Shown here piece by piece: positions 14,294 to 30,986 of a DNA stretch of 64,000 nt. The notes below the pieces were generated by a model. It was not told the origin of the DNA. It did no database searches and saw only the letters and a list, made by a program, of their open reading frames with translations. Both the position numbers and the translations under genes were made by a program. The DNA lies in IMG/VR virus record IMGVR_UViG_3300022903_000002, positions 32,001-96,000 of that record, one strand, 5' to 3'. This DNA is from a virus. Numbering within the stretch: the stretch's first letter is position 1; every line of letters starts with the position of its first letter.

Positions 14294-14673
14294 TGACCGT
14301 CCTCGCACCGTTCCCGGACGTGGAACGCGCGGTTGGCGACCTCGTAACCGGCCTCGGAACGGCAGGGTCGGAAACGAACATCACCCTGCAGTCCACGCTT
14401 CCGTACATCCGGATCCGCCGCCTTGGCGGTTCCGATGACCGCGTCACCGACGCCGCCCGCGTGGACGTGCACGTGTACGACACGAATGCCACGTCGGCGA
14501 AAGAGATCTCCGAGCAGATCCGGCAGCGGCTGATCTCAGGGCCATCTATGACCGCCCATGGCGTCATCGACCGGGCCTGGACCGAGATCGGCCCGCAGAC
14601 GATCCCAGCCGATGACACCGCGGATATCCGTCAGGTCGTCGCCACTTACCGCATTTCGATGCGCCGCCGCTGA
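14293..14673 (+). CDS. tail terminator protein
   Basis: FPDVE, LPYIRIRRLGG, RVDVHVY. Confidence 0.8.
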   Translation: MTVLAPFPDVERAVGDLVTGLGTAGSETNITLQSTLPYIRIRRLGGSDDRVTDAARVDVHVYDTNATSAKEISEQIRQRLISGPSMTAHGVIDRAWTEIGPQTIPADDTADIRQVVATYRISMRRR

Positions 14674-14752
14674 CCAGCGGCTCCTTTTTCAGGCCCGCCA
14701 GCCTGTCCCAGCCCCGCCCGCGGGGCCACCTATCCCGCAGAGGGGAACATCC

Positions 14753-15421
14753 ATGGCTGGCGTCAGCTATGACGATCTTCAACAGCGCAATGCCGCGCTG
14801 ATCTTCAAGGCCCTGCAGGGGTCCGTGTTCGTCGCCCCGTCGAGCGTCGCAGCGATCACCGCACTGACCGACACCGACAAGCTCCTCAAGGAACTCCCCG
14901 AAGGGTACGAGGACGTCGGCTGGATCAGCGACGACGGAGCCCAGTTCTCCCGCGACACCGACACTAGCGACATCACCGGCTGGGGAAGTGTGGAGCCGCT
15001 CCGCTCGGACGTCACACAGGACACCACCACGCTGCAGATGGAAGCCCTGGAGACCAAGAAGTCGACGATCGGTCTCTACACAGGCGCCGACATGGACGCG
15101 GTGACCCCGGACCCGGTCTCCGGTGAGGTCAGCATCCAGAAGCCCGCCCGGCCCGGGTTCCGCTACTACCGGGTCCTCGCTGTTGCCGTGGACCTCACCG
15201 ATGACGGCGAGTACTACGTCGCCCGGTTCCTGCCGCGGGCCCGCGTCACGGACTACGACGACCAGAACATGCAGTCCAGCGACGACTCGCCGATCACCTG
15301 GCCTGTCACGATGACGGGCTACGAGGACCCCCTTCTCGGCTACTCGGAGAACTACCTGTTCGGAGGCCCCGGCTGGGCGACGAGGCTCGCCGCGATGGGC
15401 TTCGAGCCCATCGGCTCCTGA
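14753..15421 (+). CDS. major tail (tube) protein
   Basis: AGAGGGG RBS; GYEDVGWISDDG, GWGSVEPLRSD, FGGPGW. Confidence 0.88.
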   Translation: MAGVSYDDLQQRNAALIFKALQGSVFVAPSSVAAITALTDTDKLLKELPEGYEDVGWISDDGAQFSRDTDTSDITGWGSVEPLRSDVTQDTTTLQMEALETKKSTIGLYTGADMDAVTPDPVSGEVSIQKPARPGFRYYRVLAVAVDLTDDGEYYVARFLPRARVTDYDDQNMQSSDDSPITWPVTMTGYEDPLLGYSENYLFGGPGWATRLAAMGFEPIGS

Positions 15422-15703: not shown

Positions 15704-15985
15704 ATGGCCGCCAAGAAGAACCAGTTCCAGCTCGCCGTCTACCGGGCGGAGGCCGTCAAGGCGCCGTTCGAGCTGATCATCGACGAGAAGACCAGCGTCA
15801 TGATCCCGCCGCCGAGTACCGATGATGTTCTCGCCGTCGCCGAGGCGGCCACTCCGCGCGAGCAGTTGCGGCTCCTCGCCGGCGACCAGTTCGGGACACT
15901 GATGGAGCACATCAGTGATGAGCCCGGCGGGATCTTGAAGCCTCTGCTGAACGATATGACCAGTCACTTCAAGCTGGGGGAATAG
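15704..15985 (+). CDS. tail assembly chaperone (G)
   Basis: Ends ...KLGE* over the slippery GGGGGAA. Confidence 0.8.
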   Translation: MAAKKNQFQLAVYRAEAVKAPFELIIDEKTSVMIPPPSTDDVLAVAEAATPREQLRLLAGDQFGTLMEHISDEPGGILKPLLNDMTSHFKLGE

Positions 15986-16440
15986 CGCGCGCTGCTGGCC
16001 TGATCGACAGGTACGGCAGCGCGATCCGCGCTGACCTGCGCCGATTCTACGGCGTGGACATGCTTGATTTCTTCCGGGACAGATTGTCGGCACAAGAGAT
16101 CCTCGACTATCTCGAGCACATGCCGCGCACGTCCGCGTATCACACGGCCATTGCGGAGGACGAGGACCTTGCCGAGCAACTGGCGGGAATGCCAGATCAG
16201 AAGCCGGGACCGCCGCGGCTAGCGGAGTTTTCACCAGAGGTGCAGGTCCTTGCTGAGGTGCGGGATCTGGTGGCGACGCTCATCAACGTGCAGATCGCCC
16301 GGGCCGGCAAGAAACCATCGAAGGTGAAGCCTTACCCGCGGCCCGTATCGGCGGTTGAGCAGGTCCGCCGGCGGGAGCGGTACCGGAAGCACACGTCGCT
16401 GGTCGCACAACTCATTCCCGGGTCGGATCGACAGCGGTAG
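15976..16440 (+). CDS. tail assembly chaperone GT extension via -1 programmed frameshift
   Basis: GGGGGAA at 15976-15982; the -1 frame reads IARAAGLIDRYGSAIRADLRRFYGVD... open to 16440. Confidence 0.8.
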   Translation, partial: GGIARAAGLIDRYGSAIRADLRRFYGVDMLDFFRDRLSAQEILDYLEHMPRTSAYHTAIAEDEDLAEQLAGMPDQKPGPPRLAEFSPEVQVLAEVRDLVATLINVQIARAGKKPSKVKPYPRPVSAVEQVRRRERYRKHTSLVAQLIPGSDRQR

Positions 16441-16473: not shown

Positions 16474-19400
16474 GTGGCCGCTCAAGTCGGTGCTGCTTAC
16501 ATCAAGGTCGCTCCGAACCTCGCCGGTTTCCACCGCACGATCACCAAAGAGCTAAAAAGCCTCAGCCCGCAGGTCAAGAAGATCGGGTTGGGGCTCGGCC
16601 GGAACCTTGGCGACGGCATCAAGGTCGGCCTCGGCGACCCGCTTTCCGGACCGCTGGATGAGTCCACCAAGAAGCAACGGCAGAAAGGCCCCAAGCAGGG
16701 CGAAGAGGTCGCTGGGGCGTTCGCGAAGGGTTTCGAGAAGCGCCTGAAGGCAGCGTTTCAGGCCCTGCCGAAAGCCGAAATCGACGCTGATTCCTCACCC
16801 GCCGACAAGAAGATCGCGGAGCTTCGGCGACAGCTTGAGGCACTCTCCGGCAAGACCGTCGGTGTCGACATTGACGCGGGTGCGGCTCTCTCAGAGGTCG
16901 CCGCGATCCGGTCCGAGTTGGAGGCACTGGACGGCCACGAGTCGATCCAGGTCGATGTCGACGCCGCTGCGGCCCTGGCGGAGCTCACCGCGGTACAGGT
17001 CGAGGTCGATCGGGTAGATGGGCGCACAGCCCGTGTGAACGTCAACGCGGACGTGTTGCCGGCGTTGGCTGGTATCGGGCTTGTCAGCACGGCGTTGCTT
17101 GGTCTGACGGCGATTCCGATTGCGGCGACGGTCGGTGTGGGGATCCTGTCGCTGGTCGGTCCGCTTGGTGCGGCGGGAGCTGGGTTCGCTGGTCTTGCTG
17201 CGGTCGCGACTCCGTCGATCAACCGTATCGGCGAGGCGCTGAAGGTCCAGAAGCAGGCGCAGGACGCGTCGACGGGTAGTGCCGCGCAGGCCGCGGCGGC
17301 GAACAAGAAGCTCGCCGCGACGATGGCGGCTCTGTCGCCTGCTGAGCGCGACGTGCTCAAGTCGTGGAACGGGCTGCGGACGGCGTTCACGGGCTGGGCG
17401 AAGGAACTGCAGCCTGCCGTGCTCCCGCTGTTCACGCGCGGCATCAACCTGGTGAAGCAGGCTCTGCCCGGGTTGACGCCGATCGTGAAAGGCGCGGCCG
17501 GCGCGGTCAACGGTCTCCTCGGGGACGTTACCCGCGCGGCTCAGTCGCCGTTCTGGCGGCAACTACGGACGAATATCACAGGTCTGGTGCCGACGTCGAT
17601 CACGGGTTTCGGGAAGATCGCCGGGAACATCGCGACGGGTCTGGCTGGGATCGTGTCCGCGTTCTTGCCGTATGCGCCCACGATCTTGTCGTTCATCACC
17701 CGGATCACCGCGGGTTTCGCCCGTTGGGGCCAGGGGCTGGGGACCTCGAACGGCTTCGCGAAGTTTATGGCCTACGTCAAGCAGAACGCGCCGCTGATCC
17801 TCGAGACGGTCAAGCAGCTCGGCTTGTCGATCGCGCACATTGTGTCGTCGCTGGCACCACTCGGCCCGGCCGTCCTCGGCGGCTTCGGGCTGCTGCTGCG
17901 GTTTATCGGCATGCTGACGCCCGGCGAGATCCAGGCCATCGCGATCGCGTTCACGCTCCTGTCGGTGTCGATCTGGGCCGTGAATTTCGCGCTTGAAGCC
18001 AATCCGGTGGTGCTTGTCATAACGCTGATCGTCGCTCTTGTGGCGGCGGTCGTCTTGGCGTTCAACCACGTGACGTGGTTCCACAATGCGGTGGTCGCGG
18101 CGTTCAACGGCATCAAGGCCGCGGTCCTGTTCGTCTGGAATTCGGTCTTGAAGCCGACGTTCTCGGCTCTCGTGGTCGCTTTCCAAGCGATCAGCACGGT
18201 CGTGATGTGGCTGTGGCGGAACGTGATCTCCCCGGCATTCAGCGCCATCTCGCTGGCCGCACGGATCCTGTTCGCGATCGTCGCCGTTGCCGTCCTGGCG
18301 CCGCTGGTCATCGCGTTCAACATCCTCAAGGCCGTGATTCTGGCTTGGTGGCACATCGTTGTGGTGCCAGCGTTCGCGGCGGTGCAGGCGGTCATCGCGG
18401 CAGCATGGGTGGTGATCCACCCGATCCTGGCCGCGCTCGGCGTCGCGGTCCGCGCTGTTGGCGCTGCGGCGATGTGGCTGTGGCACAACGCGATCGTGCC
18501 GGCCTGGAACGGCATCAGCCTTGCAATTGCCACCGTGTACAACACGGTGATTCACCCGATCTTGAACGCGCTGAACGCGGTGCTACGGAACGTGATCGCC
18601 CCGGTTTTCCGGTGGATCTACACATCGGTGATCAAGCCGATGTTCCAGGCGGCGGGCGCTGTGATCCGTAACGTCTGGAACACCGCTATAAGTCCGGCGT
18701 TCAACGCTCTTAAGTCGGGTGTGAACGCGGTCAAGAACGCGTTCTCCACCGCTGTCTCGGCAATCGGGCGAATCTGGAAGGGCCTGGAGTCCGCCACCAA
18801 GAAACCCGTCCAATTTGTTGTCAACACGGTCTACAACAACGGCATCCGTTCCGTGTGGAACAAGGTCGCCGGCCTAGTTCACCTGCCTCAGCTGCCTGCG
18901 GCGAAGTTCGCTCAGGGCGGTATCTTCCCGGGCTACACGCCCGGCAAGGACCCGTACTCCATGCCGATGGCCGCCTTCTCTGGCGGCGAGGCCGTCATGC
19001 GGCCCGAGTTCACCCGAGCGGTCGGCCCCGGGTTCGTGTACGCGGCGAACAAGGTAGCTCGCAAGCGTGGGCCTGGCGGTGTCCGGGATTTCCTCGCGAA
19101 CGGTGAGATGAAGTTCGCGACGGGCGGGATCCTGCCCGGACGGCATGTGGCGGCATTCGCGAATGGCGGCATCATCGGAGGGATCCTCGGGGCCGTCAAG
19201 CGTGCCAGCAGTCTCGTGGTTCGCGGCGCGTCATCGGTCCTCGGCGGGGGTGCGAGCGCGTTCGCGAAGACCGTCCTCAACCCGATCCTGTCTCGGATCC
19301 CGGGGGCGGATTCGCCGTGGGCGCAGGGCATCCTGTCCCTGCCGAAACGGATGATCGATGGGTTCATCTCCTGGCTGCACACAGCCATCGATCCGAAGCT

Positions 19401-21216
19401 CGGCGGTGACGCGCATGGTGTTGTCGCCGCAGCGAAGAAATACATCGGTATCGGCGACGATAGAGGACCTAACAACAACATCTTCAGCCGCTGGTGGGGA
19501 ATGCCGGGCGGGCCTTGGTGCTTCGCGGCCGGAACACTTGTGGACACCCCACAAGGCTTGGTCCCGATCGAGAACCTCAAGGTCGGCGACCCGGTCTACA
19601 CCGGAACCGGCAATGTCCAGCGGGTGTCGTGTCTGTACAGGAGGCAGAAAGAGCTGTGGCGCGTCGTCGCCATGGGAATGCCCGAGACCTTCACGACCGA
19701 AGACCATCCGTATCTTGTGCGTAAGCGCCTCGCTGGGCGGAAGCGGGCGTTTGCGGAGCCGCAGCGCACATCGGTCAAGGACCTCCGGAAGGGGGACCTG
19801 ATCGGCCTTCCGCTCGGGCCGGAAGGAACGACGAAGTACGACCCGGACCTGAGTTACGTCCTCGGCATGTATGTCGCCGACGGATGCCGGAGCAAGGGCA
19901 CCGTGATCTTCTCGGATGCCCCTGGTGAGACCGAACGGATCCTAACCGCCCTCAAGCGCGCCGGCTTCGATCGAGCATGGACCACACGTAACGGCGGTGG
20001 GACGAACACGGGCATCACCGACAGCGGCCTCTACGAACTGTGCGGGAAGTTCGGGGACCTGGCACACAACAAGGAGATCCCCGATGAAGTCCACGCTTGG
20101 GATGCCGCCGCCAGGACCGCTTTCGTAGAGGGGTTCCTCGCCGGGGACGGGCACCTGAACGATGCGATCTCGTGCGGTGGTTCGCCGCGCTGGGAGGTCA
20201 CGACCGTTTCACCGAAGTTGGCCGTCGGGCTGGCCAAACTACTGCGGTCCCTGGGGTTCCTCCCGTCGGTGAATGACGGTCGCCCTGAACAATCGCTGAC
20301 GATCTGCGGACGGGATACACACTGCCGGAAGCAGTTCAAGCTGAGCTGGCGGAACGCCCATCGCGATGAACTTACCTATCACCATTACGTCGAAGAGGAC
20401 GGTGTCATCTGGGTTCCGGTTCGTGAGGCGGAGCCGACGGGGCGAGTCGAGTGCGTGTATGACATCACCGTTCCTGGCGAGCACACATTCATCGCTAACG
20501 GAGCGTATTCGTTCAACTGCGCCATGTTCGTTTCTCGTGTCATCAAGGACGCCCACGCCGAGAAGTACTACTCCGGATATCCGACGGCGCTGGCCGCCGG
20601 GTACAACTCGATGCGGCATGTCAGTAGCGGGCAAGCTGGTGACCTCGCCACATACAACGGCGGCGGTCACATCAACATCATCGAGAAACCCGCTGGCGGG
20701 GCGTACATGACGATCGGCGGGAACCAGAACGCGCTCGTACAGCGCGGTATCCGGTCTCCCGGCCTGATTTTGCGCCCGGCGTTCGCGAACGGCGGGATCA
20801 TCGGCCGAGAAGCGCAGCGCCTGTTCAAGCACGACGCACCGCGGCAGATCGACAAGCACGAACTGCAGACGCCGATGGTGCAACTCATGCGTTCGCTGCC
20901 GTCCGGGCAGATGAGCAACGTTGTCCGCGCGATCACGAAGAAGCACCTCACCGTCGCGAACGCCGGCGTCTACGACGACGGAGGTGTTATTGCCCCTGGG
21001 TTGAACCTTGTCGCGAACGCGTCACGAAAACCGGAAGCGCTGCTGAGCAACGCGCAGTGGCGTGGCATCACCGAGGCCGCCGCTGGTGGCGACACGCACT
21101 ATCACGCGCACCTGGACGAGATGACGCAGGCGGCCTACGGCACGCAGATCCGCTCGACATTCCACGCGATGGAAACCCAGCGGGCCATGAAAGAGCGCAT
21201 CGGACGGAGGCGCTGA
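16474..21216 (+). CDS. tape measure protein with C-terminal CHAP domain interrupted by an intein
   Basis: 1580 aa, Ala-rich, W-spaced amphipathic repeats, FAxGG motifs; follows the chaperones. Confidence 0.92.
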   Translation: MAAQVGAAYIKVAPNLAGFHRTITKELKSLSPQVKKIGLGLGRNLGDGIKVGLGDPLSGPLDESTKKQRQKGPKQGEEVAGAFAKGFEKRLKAAFQALPKAEIDADSSPADKKIAELRRQLEALSGKTVGVDIDAGAALSEVAAIRSELEALDGHESIQVDVDAAAALAELTAVQVEVDRVDGRTARVNVNADVLPALAGIGLVSTALLGLTAIPIAATVGVGILSLVGPLGAAGAGFAGLAAVATPSINRIGEALKVQKQAQDASTGSAAQAAAANKKLAATMAALSPAERDVLKSWNGLRTAFTGWAKELQPAVLPLFTRGINLVKQALPGLTPIVKGAAGAVNGLLGDVTRAAQSPFWRQLRTNITGLVPTSITGFGKIAGNIATGLAGIVSAFLPYAPTILSFITRITAGFARWGQGLGTSNGFAKFMAYVKQNAPLILETVKQLGLSIAHIVSSLAPLGPAVLGGFGLLLRFIGMLTPGEIQAIAIAFTLLSVSIWAVNFALEANPVVLVITLIVALVAAVVLAFNHVTWFHNAVVAAFNGIKAAVLFVWNSVLKPTFSALVVAFQAISTVVMWLWRNVISPAFSAISLAARILFAIVAVAVLAPLVIAFNILKAVILAWWHIVVVPAFAAVQAVIAAAWVVIHPILAALGVAVRAVGAAAMWLWHNAIVPAWNGISLAIATVYNTVIHPILNALNAVLRNVIAPVFRWIYTSVIKPMFQAAGAVIRNVWNTAISPAFNALKSGVNAVKNAFSTAVSAIGRIWKGLESATKKPVQFVVNTVYNNGIRSVWNKVAGLVHLPQLPAAKFAQGGIFPGYTPGKDPYSMPMAAFSGGEAVMRPEFTRAVGPGFVYAANKVARKRGPGGVRDFLANGEMKFATGGILPGRHVAAFANGGIIGGILGAVKRASSLVVRGASSVLGGGASAFAKTVLNPILSRIPGADSPWAQGILSLPKRMIDGFISWLHTAIDPKLGGDAHGVVAAAKKYIGIGDDRGPNNNIFSRWWGMPGGPWCFAAGTLVDTPQGLVPIENLKVGDPVYTGTGNVQRVSCLYRRQKELWRVVAMGMPETFTTEDHPYLVRKRLAGRKRAFAEPQRTSVKDLRKGDLIGLPLGPEGTTKYDPDLSYVLGMYVADGCRSKGTVIFSDAPGETERILTALKRAGFDRAWTTRNGGGTNTGITDSGLYELCGKFGDLAHNKEIPDEVHAWDAAARTAFVEGFLAGDGHLNDAISCGGSPRWEVTTVSPKLAVGLAKLLRSLGFLPSVNDGRPEQSLTICGRDTHCRKQFKLSWRNAHRDELTYHHYVEEDGVIWVPVREAEPTGRVECVYDITVPGEHTFIANGAYSFNCAMFVSRVIKDAHAEKYYSGYPTALAAGYNSMRHVSSGQAGDLATYNGGGHINIIEKPAGGAYMTIGGNQNALVQRGIRSPGLILRPAFANGGIIGREAQRLFKHDAPRQIDKHELQTPMVQLMRSLPSGQMSNVVRAITKKHLTVANAGVYDDGGVIAPGLNLVANASRKPEALLSNAQWRGITEAAAGGDTHYHAHLDEMTQAAYGTQIRSTFHAMETQRAMKERIGRRR
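19519..20517 (+). mobile_element. intein (333 aa) with LAGLIDADG homing endonuclease
   Basis: Block A CFAAGTLV, block B TTEDHPY, LAGLIDADG-like YVLGMYVADG and FVEGFLAGDG, block F VYDITV..EHTFIANG, terminal FN followed by Cys+1. Confidence 0.92.
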
Positions 21217-22161
21217 ATGCCGCTGCTCGTCAAACGGCCGTCCGCGCCGGCGGCTCCGCAGTCACCGGGGTTCAACCCGGATCGGCTCGGTGTGACGTAC
21301 ATCGATCCGGACGGGCATGCGTGGGCGTGGGGTGATCTGACGGCGAAGGTGTTCGCGACGGCGGTGGCCGGTCTCGGTTCACCACCTGTCGCGTTCACCC
21401 AGCTCGGTTTGCCGTCCGGGGGTGCCTTCGCGCAGTCACATCTGGCCGCGGCTCGTACCATCACGGTCGGCCTGTATGCCTACGACGATGAGGACCAGGG
21501 CGCGTTCCTTGCGCTGGTGGACCGTCTCGCTCGAGCTCTATGGTCGCAGCGGGATGGGAAGCCCGCGCCGGGGATCCTGGTGATCGCACGCCCGGACGGG
21601 ACAGCCCGGCAGATCCAGGTGTACTGCACTGACGGCATGGACCTGTCCGACGACGACCGGACGAAGTCAGGCCTGATGTGGGCGACGTATCCGGTCACGC
21701 TCGCGGCCCCAGACCCGTTCTTCGAGGACGCTGACGCGACCTCACGGGAGTTCGGCTCCTCGACTACTGCTGGCATTCCACCGATGCCACCGATCGTGTT
21801 GTCGCCGTCGTCGCTGCTCGGGGATACGACGGTCGACAATTCCGGTGACGCTGACGCGTACCCGATCTGGACGATCCACGGGCCCGGCACACCCACCTTG
21901 TCGAACGTCACGACGGGCCGATCGTTCGGGCTGGATGTGAGCCTCGGCGATGACGAGGTCGTTGTGGTCGACACTCGGCCCGGTATGCAGTCCGCGGTCG
22001 ACCAGGACGGCGTTAACCGTTGGGCGGATCTGGTCCGGTCGAGTCCGCGTGACTTGTGGCAGCTCGTCCCGGGCGTGAACGAGCTAAGCCTGACGATCGG
22101 CGATTCCGATGCCGGGTCGAAGATCAGCCTGTCGTTCACGCGCCGCTGGTTGAGGGCCTGA
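21217..22161 (+). CDS. distal tail protein (Dit)-like
   Basis: Follows TMP; LAAPDPFF, NSGDADAYPIWTIHGP, LVPGVN. Confidence 0.8.
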   Translation: MPLLVKRPSAPAAPQSPGFNPDRLGVTYIDPDGHAWAWGDLTAKVFATAVAGLGSPPVAFTQLGLPSGGAFAQSHLAAARTITVGLYAYDDEDQGAFLALVDRLARALWSQRDGKPAPGILVIARPDGTARQIQVYCTDGMDLSDDDRTKSGLMWATYPVTLAAPDPFFEDADATSREFGSSTTAGIPPMPPIVLSPSSLLGDTTVDNSGDADAYPIWTIHGPGTPTLSNVTTGRSFGLDVSLGDDEVVVVDTRPGMQSAVDQDGVNRWADLVRSSPRDLWQLVPGVNELSLTIGDSDAGSKISLSFTRRWLRA

Positions 22162-29542: not shown

Positions 29543-30034
29543 GTGGCTGATCATGTCTGCTCGCTGAAGTACGACCCGGCCGTAGATGGGTCGCAGTCGA
29601 TCCCGGGCGACGGCGCATACCACCTCGTCAGGTTCCCCTACGGGGGTCACGAGTCGTATGACCCGGACAACATGCACGCCCAATCCCGCGGCGGCAGCGA
29701 CCACCCGTTCAGCAGCCAACAGGCCGGGCTGATCTGGCCGGCGCTCCCATCTGGCAGATCAGCGTGGGCCGAGATCAAAGCGATGATCCAGTGGAAGCCA
29801 GGGAACGCGACCGAGTACCGAGACCGGTTCACCCGCGACCCGCTGAACCTGTCGACCGGAGCGGACTCCACCTGCACTGAACACCGTCCACCATCGCCGG
29901 GCATGCAGTGCTTCGCGAAGGCCTGGGCGATGTGGATGTCCCCAGAGACCCCCCTCGGGCTGATGGTCGCCCACAACTCCTCCTCGCCGATCCGGCTTGA
30001 CGTGTGCGAGTTCAAGATCTCCTACCGCACGTAA
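29543..30034 (+). CDS. hypothetical protein
   Basis: 163-aa ORF in the operon. Confidence 0.6.
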   Translation: MADHVCSLKYDPAVDGSQSIPGDGAYHLVRFPYGGHESYDPDNMHAQSRGGSDHPFSSQQAGLIWPALPSGRSAWAEIKAMIQWKPGNATEYRDRFTRDPLNLSTGADSTCTEHRPPSPGMQCFAKAWAMWMSPETPLGLMVAHNSSSPIRLDVCEFKISYRT

Positions 30035-30053
30035 ACCCCCGAACCATCCCACC

Positions 30054-30083
30054 GAAGCCTCAGGCACCCGCCTGGGGCTTTTC
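30054..30083 (+). terminator. hairpin terminator
   Basis: GAAGCCTCAGGC-ACCC-GCCTGGGGCTTTTC. Confidence 0.55.
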
Positions 30084-30101
30084 GCATTGAGAGGGGCGAC
30101 C

Positions 30102-30986
30102 ATGCCCGATCAGGACGTCGAAGAGTTCGTTCCGCCGCCGGCAGGGGAGACGGTCCCGCCGCCCGGCCCGTCTGACCGCGGCGCACCCGACCTCCCGGAC
30201 CCGCCCGATGACGGCGTCGAGTACGTCGACCCGCTCGCACACGAGGAGGGGGACCGCCGGAAGCTGACCGCTGCGGCGACAGCACCGACGGGTTCGCAGG
30301 TGCTGGCGTATGCCCGCACATTCAAGGGCGTCGCGGACGGCCGACGGCGGGAGAACGAGAACGACTTCACCCACTGGTACTACGGCAACTCCACCGCCGC
30401 ATCGTTCTGCCTGATCTTCATCTGTTACGTCTTCAACCACTTCGACGTGCTCGTGACGTTCCTGGGCGGGAAGATCGCGTACTGCCCGGACGTGAAGAAG
30501 CGCGTCGGCTCCAAGTTCCACACCACCAGATCCGACATCCGGCCGGGCGACCCGGTCCTGTTCGACTTCAACAACACGAACGAGCCCGAGCATGTCGGCC
30601 TGTTCGTGAAGTGGCTGAACGACTCCCACACCATGTTCGAGTCGTTCGAGGCGAACACGACCGGCGGTGGCAGCAGCGACTGGATTGGCGCCAAGACCCG
30701 CTACTGGTCGGACGTGTTCGGCTACGTCAAGCCTGGTCTCGCCCCGGAGAACCCCAATGCGTACCCCGGCAAGATCTACCGGTATGTCAAGGGTGACCTG
30801 ATGCACGATGACCACATCGAGTGGGCGCAGGGCCGCCTCAACGCGAAGGGCGCATCGCCGAAGCTTGTCGCGGACGGCGTGTACGGCACGAAGACCCGCG
30901 ACGAGGTTAGCGATTTCCAGTCCGCGAACGGACTCACGAAGGACGGGGAAATCGGCCCGAAGACCTGGGCGAAGCTCGGGGCCTAA
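30102..30986 (+). CDS. endolysin: CHAP catalytic domain plus C-terminal PG-binding domain
   Basis: FCLIFI (Cys), RPGDPVLFDF...EHVGL (His), EANT; ADGVYGTKT...FQ...DGEIGPKTW. Confidence 0.85.
   Translation: MPDQDVEEFVPPPAGETVPPPGPSDRGAPDLPDPPDDGVEYVDPLAHEEGDRRKLTAAATAPTGSQVLAYARTFKGVADGRRRENENDFTHWYYGNSTAASFCLIFICYVFNHFDVLVTFLGGKIAYCPDVKKRVGSKFHTTRSDIRPGDPVLFDFNNTNEPEHVGLFVKWLNDSHTMFESFEANTTGGGSSDWIGAKTRYWSDVFGYVKPGLAPENPNAYPGKIYRYVKGDLMHDDHIEWAQGRLNAKGASPKLVADGVYGTKTRDEVSDFQSANGLTKDGEIGPKTWAKLGA

Follow-up and report, generated by a model that had tools for sequence, protein, structure and literature searches.

A class-1 intein at the predicted catalytic cysteine of a cell-wall hydrolase domain in a phage tape measure gene

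Introduction

A model-made initial annotation of the DNA discussed here stated that the inteins of actinophages are mostly reported from terminases and DNA-metabolism enzymes. This is fair as a generalization, but tape measure proteins have already been listed as a new actinophage intein host (Gosselin, Arsenault and Gogarten, bioRxiv 10.1101/2025.01.02.630785). No tail or lysin host appears in the 2016 survey of mycobacteriophage inteins (PMC5050341), and according to Payne and Hatfull, 224 mycobacteriophage endolysins are all free of introns and inteins. Here we describe a class-1 intein in the tape measure protein gene of what is probably a siphovirus-type phage of actinomycetes. It is found in a stretch of 64,000 nucleotides (the window), comprising bases 32001-96000 of the 105,082-base linear IMG/VR virus record IMGVR_UViG_3300022903_000002 (estimated 92% complete), and it lies directly before the codon for the predicted catalytic cysteine of an NlpC/P60-CHAP hydrolase domain.

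The tape measure inteins named in the preprint are those of BearBQ gp17, Twinkle gp18, and Mcklovin gp18, given as class 1 with LAGLIDADG endonucleases; their insertion sites are not discussed there. By our own reading, the intein of Gordonia phage BearBQ (OR253908; gene 17, residues ~1190-1570) likewise splits the catalytic-cysteine motif of a papain-like hydrolase: the sequence ...YVWGG..WGDC|C...VHN|SGAMS would on splicing restore the NlpC/P60 “DCSG,” an insertion inside the GDC|SG catalytic motif that the preprint does not mention. The two cases differ in the point of insertion (the catalytic Cys precedes the BearBQ intein as its -1 residue, with Ser at +1, whereas in the window the catalytic Cys is itself +1), in the hydrolase motif (DCSG vs. 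PWCAxFVS), and in the penultimate intein residue, which is the canonical His in BearBQ and Phe in the window. The inteins are only 24% identical (pairwise E 7e-10) and so represent independent invasions. Twinkle gp18 was considered as a further active-site parallel and rejected, its intein lying by eye upstream of the SLT domain; this intein gave no Pfam match.

In the phage collection, the nearest relatives of the window's intein are those in C5 DNA methyltransferases (motif IV, P-C-Q) of mycobacteriophages Brocalys, Pacc40, and Doug and of Propionibacterium phage B22. These are also class-1 LAGLIDADG inteins whose +1 residue is the catalytic Cys of the host enzyme, but the host protein is unrelated and not a virion hydrolase, and identity is ~26-32%. 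Other mycobacteriophage class-1 inteins, such as that of Bethlehem gp51 (the recombination directionality factor, RDF), resemble it in being situated in active-center motifs and in having the penultimate His replaced while remaining splicing-competent; the replacements there are Gly, Lys, or Ser rather than Phe, and the hosts are DNA-metabolism and packaging proteins (PMC5050341). For the hydrolase module there is a parallel in mycobacteriophage TM4, where Piuri and Hatfull (2006), as cited in PMC3314691, placed peptidoglycan-hydrolase motifs within the tape measure protein; such a module is presumed to be active during DNA injection. The mycobacteriophage tape measure hydrolase motifs are uninterrupted, unlike the one in the window.

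Results and Discussion

Boundaries of the intein

The host gene is a single open reading frame (ORF) of 1580 codons without interruption (Table 1). It matches the tape-measure families of the PHROG database (best E 1e-75), and a family profile of the protein matches the tape measure protein gp57, of solved structure (PDB 6v8i), with E 4e-45; its position between the tail-chaperone ORFs and the distal tail protein (Dit) gene is that of a tape measure gene. A search of 5.8 billion proteins recovered 45 relatives. More than 30 of these have no insert and read straight through the sequence ...GMPG(A/G)PWC(A/S)(M/I)FVS..., so that the insert, which begins CFAAGTLVDT and is bounded by the junctions GGPW|CFAAGT and AYSFN|CAMFVS, is an exact in-frame indel. 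The initial annotation had located the element from the sequence by itself, and its endpoints, length (333 amino acids), and protein sizes with and without the insert (1580 and 1247 amino acids) all proved exact when the intein-free homologues were aligned through the junctions. In an alignment of 35 sequences, the Trp and the Cys that border the intein on its two sides are both invariant (35/35).

The nearest intein-free homologue, P0005 (1248 amino acids), reads GGPWC|SMFVSRVIK across the junction, and the predicted spliced product is colinear with it at 80% identity over the full length. A sliding identity plot against P0005 has no dip near the insertion site, and there is thus no sign of a recent co-conversion tract. 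In base composition the intein (62.7% G+C; 77% at third codon positions) is slightly below the flanking gene (64-65% and 82%, respectively). The tryptic peptide predicted to span the spliced junction is WWGMPGGPWCAMFVSR.

Splicing and endonuclease motifs

By its sequence motifs and its modeled fold, the element is a class-1 intein with a two-motif LAGLIDADG endonuclease. Pfam matches on the insert are Hint_2 (E 5e-10), Intein_splicing (1e-7), LAGLIDADG_3 (1.4e-5; 25.7 bits against a cut-off of 22.5 on the insert alone), and Hom_end (1e-3). The first nucleophile (in CFAAGTLV), the block B residues T60-E-D-H63, the terminal Asn1348, and the following Cys1349 are all in place, and each of the two LAGLIDADG motifs retains its acidic residue. 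Among ten orthologues at the same site, the window's included, Cys1, block B (T-x-D-H-P-Y), the block F sequence VYD(I/L)TVPGEH, the terminal Asn, and the +1 Cys are common to all, as are the LAGLIDADG cores (ADG and GDG) with their conserved Asp; the block A motif is CFAAGT in nine, and CFAADT in P0021.

An AlphaFold model of the precursor segment 19399-20862 (predicted local distance difference test score, pLDDT, 80.8) has both the HINT fold and the LAGLIDADG endonuclease fold. Its Foldseek matches include TliVMA (7qsu, E 2e-19), PI-SceI (1ef0, E 2e-17), PI-PfuI, 1dq3, and 6mwy; for the endonuclease fold they are PI-SceI, PI-PfuI, I-DmoI, and I-Tsp061I, with I-DmoI corresponding to the middle part.

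The one departure from the class-1 pattern is at the penultimate position, where a His is highly conserved, if not obligatory. Here it is Phe1347, which the initial annotation had noticed correctly along with the pair of LAGLIDADG motifs; among the ten orthologues it is His in six (VHN), Ser in three (VSN), and Phe in this one alone. The penultimate His is poorly conserved in mycobacteriophage class-1 inteins, with Gly, Lys, or Ser in its place; a Gly-bearing phage intein splices faster than its own His mutant, and the block F His is able to substitute for the penultimate one (Kelley et al., 2016, PMC5050341). For inteins generally, the penultimate His is dispensable (PMC7664689). Since non-His residues are both common in actinophage inteins and compatible with splicing, its absence is not alarming, and the block F His is retained in the window's intein.

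The interrupted hydrolase domain

Removal of the intein joins two pieces of a domain that, from its fold and its relatives, is predicted to be a cell-wall hydrolase of the NlpC/P60-CHAP superfamily (Pfam clan Peptidase_CA). The N-terminal piece corresponds to residues 1-42 of the uninterrupted domain in a seven-sequence alignment, and the Pfam CHAP match on the C-extein begins at the +1 Cys, at profile position 11. For homologues of the protein, the scores are 20-26 bits with CHAP and ~18 bits with NLPC_P60. The structural evidence comes from a model of an intein-free relative that is 60% identical (L004:5875-6321), which has a papain-like alpha+beta fold. By VIA-align its best matches are the NlpC/P60 domain of SagA (6b8c; Z 12.1, root-mean-square deviation 2.5 Å over 106 residues) and 7cfl (Z 11.4), followed by CHAP endolysins (Z 9.1-9.4; the CHAP lysins 8h1i and 6ist at 9.4) and the LysGH15 CHAP domain (Z 7.6); the top ~29 rows are NlpC/P60 or CHAP cell-wall hydrolases without exception. 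A Foldseek search with this model gave no match below 1e-3 (best E 0.05), the top matches again all being NlpC/P60 or CHAP proteins, and matches in the PDB to a sequence profile of the domain were confined to the His-motif region of the LytN CHAP domain and of NlpC/P60 proteins (E 0.07-0.3). “CHAP” is therefore probably a fair label at the superfamily level, with the modeled structure at least as close to NlpC/P60.

The predicted catalytic residues are placed as expected for such an enzyme. The conserved Cys is at the N-terminus of a helix in the model of the intein-free relative, or two residues before it in the model of the window's precursor; the conserved His begins a beta strand in the models; and Cys, His, and Asn are invariant across the aligned homologues. 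In an hhalign comparison with E. coli MepS, the His motif is matched to the one that holds the MepS catalytic His (E 6e-4, probability only 29%). This alignment covered the His motif alone, with the Cys outside it; the Cys-to-His spacing is 50 residues here and 51 in MepS.

The best single argument for a function of the +1 Cys is that the host protein offers no other: the spliced tape measure protein contains one cysteine in total, and of 43 homologues (1061-2074 residues long), in which this Cys is invariant, 39 likewise have exactly one. The residue that serves as splice nucleophile is thus almost certainly also the catalytic nucleophile of the hydrolase; on this point the proposal of the initial annotation is borne out, the cysteine being invariant, without a second in the protein, and part of a papain-like domain.

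Distribution among homologues

An orthologous intein is found at the same W|C point in nine of the tape measure homologues (P0003, P0004, P0006, P0010, P0013, P0021, P0023, P0025, and P0026). The window's intein is 48-52% identical to these, except to that of P0021 (40%). Mapped on a tree built from the last 475 extein residues, the distribution of the intein requires six or more gains or losses, each of them imposed by well-supported branches, and the window's tape measure protein is the sister of intein-free P0005 (Shimodaira-Hasegawa-like approximate likelihood ratio test, SH-aLRT, 100). The inteins of the other carriers are 60-80% identical where their exteins are 18-30% identical (P0003 and P0023, for example, 75% vs. 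23%), so that horizontal transfer of the intein is indicated.

A scan of viral contigs found one related locus, L004 (IMGVR_UViG_2866816733_000004, 104,490 bases), with an intein-free hydrolase domain of 60% identity. A megablast search of 50,697 phage records with the region gave no match. A scan of genome contigs found 80 prophage tape measure loci, mostly in Streptomyces; none of the 80 has the intein, and six have the hydrolase domain.

The host of the phage may be approached through the relatives. The intein-bearing P0025 is the NCBI “hypothetical protein” NE236_41315 of Actinoallomurus purpureus, and prophage tape measure genes with CHAP domains occur in Nocardiopsis and Microbispora; together these hint at a host in the Streptosporangiales or related actinomycetes.

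Related inteins at other catalytic cysteines

Scanned in full with HMMER, a set of 1.84 billion cluster representatives yielded 4226 relatives of the intein at E <=1e-3, 41 of them at E <=1e-30, and the sequence context was read in the best 150. At least 25 of these 150 are in the context W|C(A/G)x(F/Y). They are of two kinds, further long proteins (1483-2187 amino acids) and ~18 small proteins of 490-732 amino acids. Altogether, at least 13 long proteins besides the window's have an orthologous intein at the W|C site, nine of them checked as tape measure relatives, and so do ~20 small ones. Ten W|C-site proteins were scanned for domains, and five had CHAP above the cut-off (33-51 bits), one of them together with PG_binding_1. 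The small carriers P0054, P0055, P0060, P0062, P0078, and P0090 have CHAP matches above the cut-off except for P0090 (23.4 bits). From their domains, the small carriers look like intein-interrupted lysins, the one with PG_binding_1 being endolysin-like.

A larger group, at least 49 of the best 150, is situated at ..GGFP|CQ..S.AG, which is motif IV of the C5 DNA methyltransferases (P0066, P0081, P0097, and P0099 among them). This agrees with a tblastn search of the phage collection, which found only distant inteins (28% identity, E 1e-20), in mycobacteriophage DNA methylase genes. Judged by these sequence contexts, the window's intein appears to belong to a clade specialized in the catalytic cysteines of unrelated enzymes, and the distribution suggests that members of the clade have switched between such sites.

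Searches of the literature on inteins in CHAP domains, or on inteins in tape measure proteins and peptidoglycan, found no description of the W|C site, nor was one of intein-interrupted lysins of the W|C type found in the literature searched.

Splicing, and alternatives to it

We consider it quite probable that the element is a selfish class-1 intein, and that a siphovirus-type actinomycete phage carries it in its tape measure gene, directly before the codon for the catalytic cysteine of an NlpC/P60-CHAP domain. That it is selfish is indicated by its patchy distribution and by inteins that resemble each other more than their exteins do; that it targets the W|C site may be understood from the invariance of the site, which also supplies the only cysteine of the protein. 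After translation, the intein would fold and Cys1 would form a thioester with the Trp at -1. The +1 Cys, the nucleophile of the hydrolase, would then take over the N-extein, and Asn333 of the intein would cyclize, probably with the help of the block F His since the penultimate residue is Phe. An S-to-N shift would give ...GGPW-CAMFVS..., and with it a 1247-residue protein whose hydrolase domain is whole. Provided that it is still active, the endonuclease would copy the intein into empty alleles during co-infection.

Splicing would most likely be constitutive and cytoplasmic, and ahead of tail assembly. With its hydrolase domain split by 333 residues and the nucleophile engaged in splicing, the precursor is presumably not an active hydrolase; three 37-kDa globular inserts are unlikely to fit in the tail tube, so that splicing presumably comes before assembly. 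The initial annotation had tail length depend on splicing. This is unlikely: a globular insert of 37 kDa within the C-terminal domain would be expected to prevent assembly sooner than to lengthen the tail, and lengthening of the tail by the intein was rejected as implausible.

Several observations weigh against this reading, or parts of it. The first concern the hydrolase. The initial annotation described the flanks as a CHAP signature; by fold and relatives they probably do belong to the hydrolase superfamily, but the Pfam CHAP (PF05257) match on the C-extein, at 19.9 bits (E 1e-3), is below the 26-bit cut-off. The structural model is of moderate confidence (pLDDT 66) and was built on the 60%-identical relative, not on the window's own spliced domain. 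The others concern the intein. Its penultimate Phe is rare, an FN end occurring in just two others among the 150 best relatives. It is the most divergent member of its family, although its extein is 69% identical to that of P0003, and it has the longest branch of the intein tree (1.54). At 32 of the 130 positions that are invariant in the other nine orthologues it is altered, W66L, W83R, H123C, and E263C included; by part, these are 8 of 38 in HINT-N, 19 of 66 in the homing endonuclease, and 5 of 23 in HINT-C, many of them conservative. The endonuclease may therefore be impaired in this copy, and conceivably the efficiency of splicing as well. It would seem to represent an old or fast-evolving lineage whose endonuclease could be working or not; its splicing residues are all intact.

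The same divergence could be taken further, as that of a decayed intein which splices poorly or not at all, leaving a non-functional tape measure protein and a defective phage, or one that has lost the hydrolase domain. The length of the branch, the alteration of 25% of otherwise invariant positions, and the replacement of the penultimate His or Ser by Phe are what decay might produce. We nevertheless regard it as unlikely: Cys1, the block B Thr and His, the block F Asp and His, the terminal Asn, and the +1 Cys are all retained, the 999-nucleotide frame is intact and many of the changes are conservative, splicing is known to proceed without a penultimate His (PMC7664689; PMC5050341), and the structural module around the gene is complete, in a virus record estimated to be nearly so.

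Another possibility is that splicing is conditional, with a redox, metal, or temperature gate on the functional tape measure protein and virion hydrolase that would tune infectivity; the initial annotation had suggested such a switch. A disulfide between Cys1 and the +1 Cys is possible in principle, and the intein has eight cysteines compared with three to five in its orthologues. The penultimate Phe might slow Asn cyclization, and variation at this position has been suggested to tune the splicing rate of phage inteins (Kelley et al., PMC5050341). However, no sensor-specific feature was found in the intein, tails are assembled in the reducing cytoplasm, a non-His penultimate residue is common, and the closest homologue, P0005, has no intein, so that the host protein does not need one; both the scattered presence of the intein and the much greater similarity among inteins than among their exteins are as expected of a selfish element. 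No evidence for a switch was found, and we think a conditional gate very unlikely. Little credence is likewise given to the related idea that a selfish element has been co-opted, with rate-limiting or condition-dependent splicing acting as a checkpoint on tape measure maturation, tail assembly, and hydrolase loading.

Finally, proteolytic processing near the C-terminus is frequent in tape measure proteins, and there are weak Pfam matches to other Hint families (Vint, E 0.13), but a bacterial-intein-like Hint domain that cleaves itself and releases the C-terminal fragment without ligation is scarcely credible where nothing is replaced and the flanks rejoin a single conserved domain that more than 30 homologues have in unbroken form, where the +1 Cys and terminal Asn are present and a homing endonuclease is embedded, and where the best structural matches are true splicing inteins.

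Genomic context

The order of genes around the intein-bearing gene is canonical for siphoviruses: terminase, portal, major tail protein, chaperone ORFs, tape measure, Dit, and minor tail protein. In the C-terminal third of the tape measure protein, the motif (F)AxGG(I/V) is present in five copies that flank the hydrolase domain and are conserved in homologues; these may be domain linkers or processing sites. Downstream, an ORF whose C-terminal PG_binding_1 match was the only domain recognized, with no catalytic domain among the matches, is a candidate endolysin, distinct from the hydrolase of the tape measure protein.

Table 1. Coordinates in the window of the tape measure gene, its intein and hydrolase domain, and neighboring features.
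Feature	Position	Strand	Remarks
Tape measure protein gene	16474..21216	+	Open ORF; precursor 1580 amino acids, predicted spliced product 1247 amino acids
N-extein	16474..19518	+	Residues 1-1015; ends ...GMPGGPW; without cysteine
Hydrolase domain, N-terminal piece	19399..19518	+	~40 amino acids of the split NlpC/P60-CHAP domain; boundary approximate
Class-1 intein with LAGLIDADG homing endonuclease	19519..20517	+	333 amino acids, residues 1016-1348; 999-nucleotide frame intact
Splicing block A	19519..19557	+	CFAAGTLVDTPQG; Cys1 is the first nucleophile
Splicing block B	19687..19719	+	TFTTEDHPYLV; Thr60 and His63 of the intein
First LAGLIDADG motif	19849..19890	+	LSYVLGMYVADGCR; includes LGMYVADG; acidic residue retained
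Second LAGLIDADG motif	20122..20157	+	FVEGFLAGDGHL; includes FLAGDG; acidic residue retained
Splicing block F	20446..20502	+	VECVYDITVPGEHTFIANG; conserved Asp and His
Splicing block G	20503..20517	+	AYSFN; penultimate Phe1347, terminal Asn1348
+1 Cys codon	20518..20520	+	TGC; residue 1349, Cys1016 of the spliced protein
C-extein	20518..21216	+	232 amino acids and stop codon
Hydrolase domain, C-terminal piece	20518..20823	+	Pfam CHAP profile positions 11-81
Predicted catalytic His codon	20668-20670	+	GGGHINII
Conserved Asn codon	20722-20724	+	TIGGNQN
(F)AxGG(I/V) copy 1	18904-18933		KFAQGGIFPG
(F)AxGG(I/V) copy 2	19111-19140		KFATGGILPG
(F)AxGG(I/V) copy 3	19153-19182		AFANGGIIGG
(F)AxGG(I/V) copy 4	20779-20808		AFANGGIIGR
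(F)AxGG(I/V) copy 5	20971-21000		YDDGGVIAPG
Major tail protein	14558-15421		Upstream of tape measure gene
Tail-chaperone ORF, first	15704-15985		Upstream of tape measure gene
Tail-chaperone ORF, second	16054-16440		Upstream of tape measure gene
Dit (distal tail protein)	21217-22161		Directly after tape measure gene
Candidate endolysin ORF	29997-30986	+	C-terminal PG_binding_1, E 7e-14

Implications

In the literature searched, the insertion site has not been described before, and what occupies it seems to be a selfish intein of the ordinary sort, not a switch on infectivity; by itself the finding reveals no new mechanism. It does carry over to a virion structural protein the rule by which inteins home to the best-conserved catalytic residues: this protein has more than 1200 residues, and its sole cysteine is used by the intein and is also the predicted nucleophile of the enzyme. 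For annotation, the intein should be excised before the length of the tail or the domain content of the protein is predicted. The element is also a possible natural test case for the speed of splicing that the assembly of a phage tail needs. More widely, it points to a sizeable group of inteins, apparently not described so far, that interrupt CHAP-type hydrolases at the catalytic Cys, in tape measure proteins and in small lysin-like proteins, and that are related to the inteins at the catalytic Cys of the C5 DNA methyltransferases.

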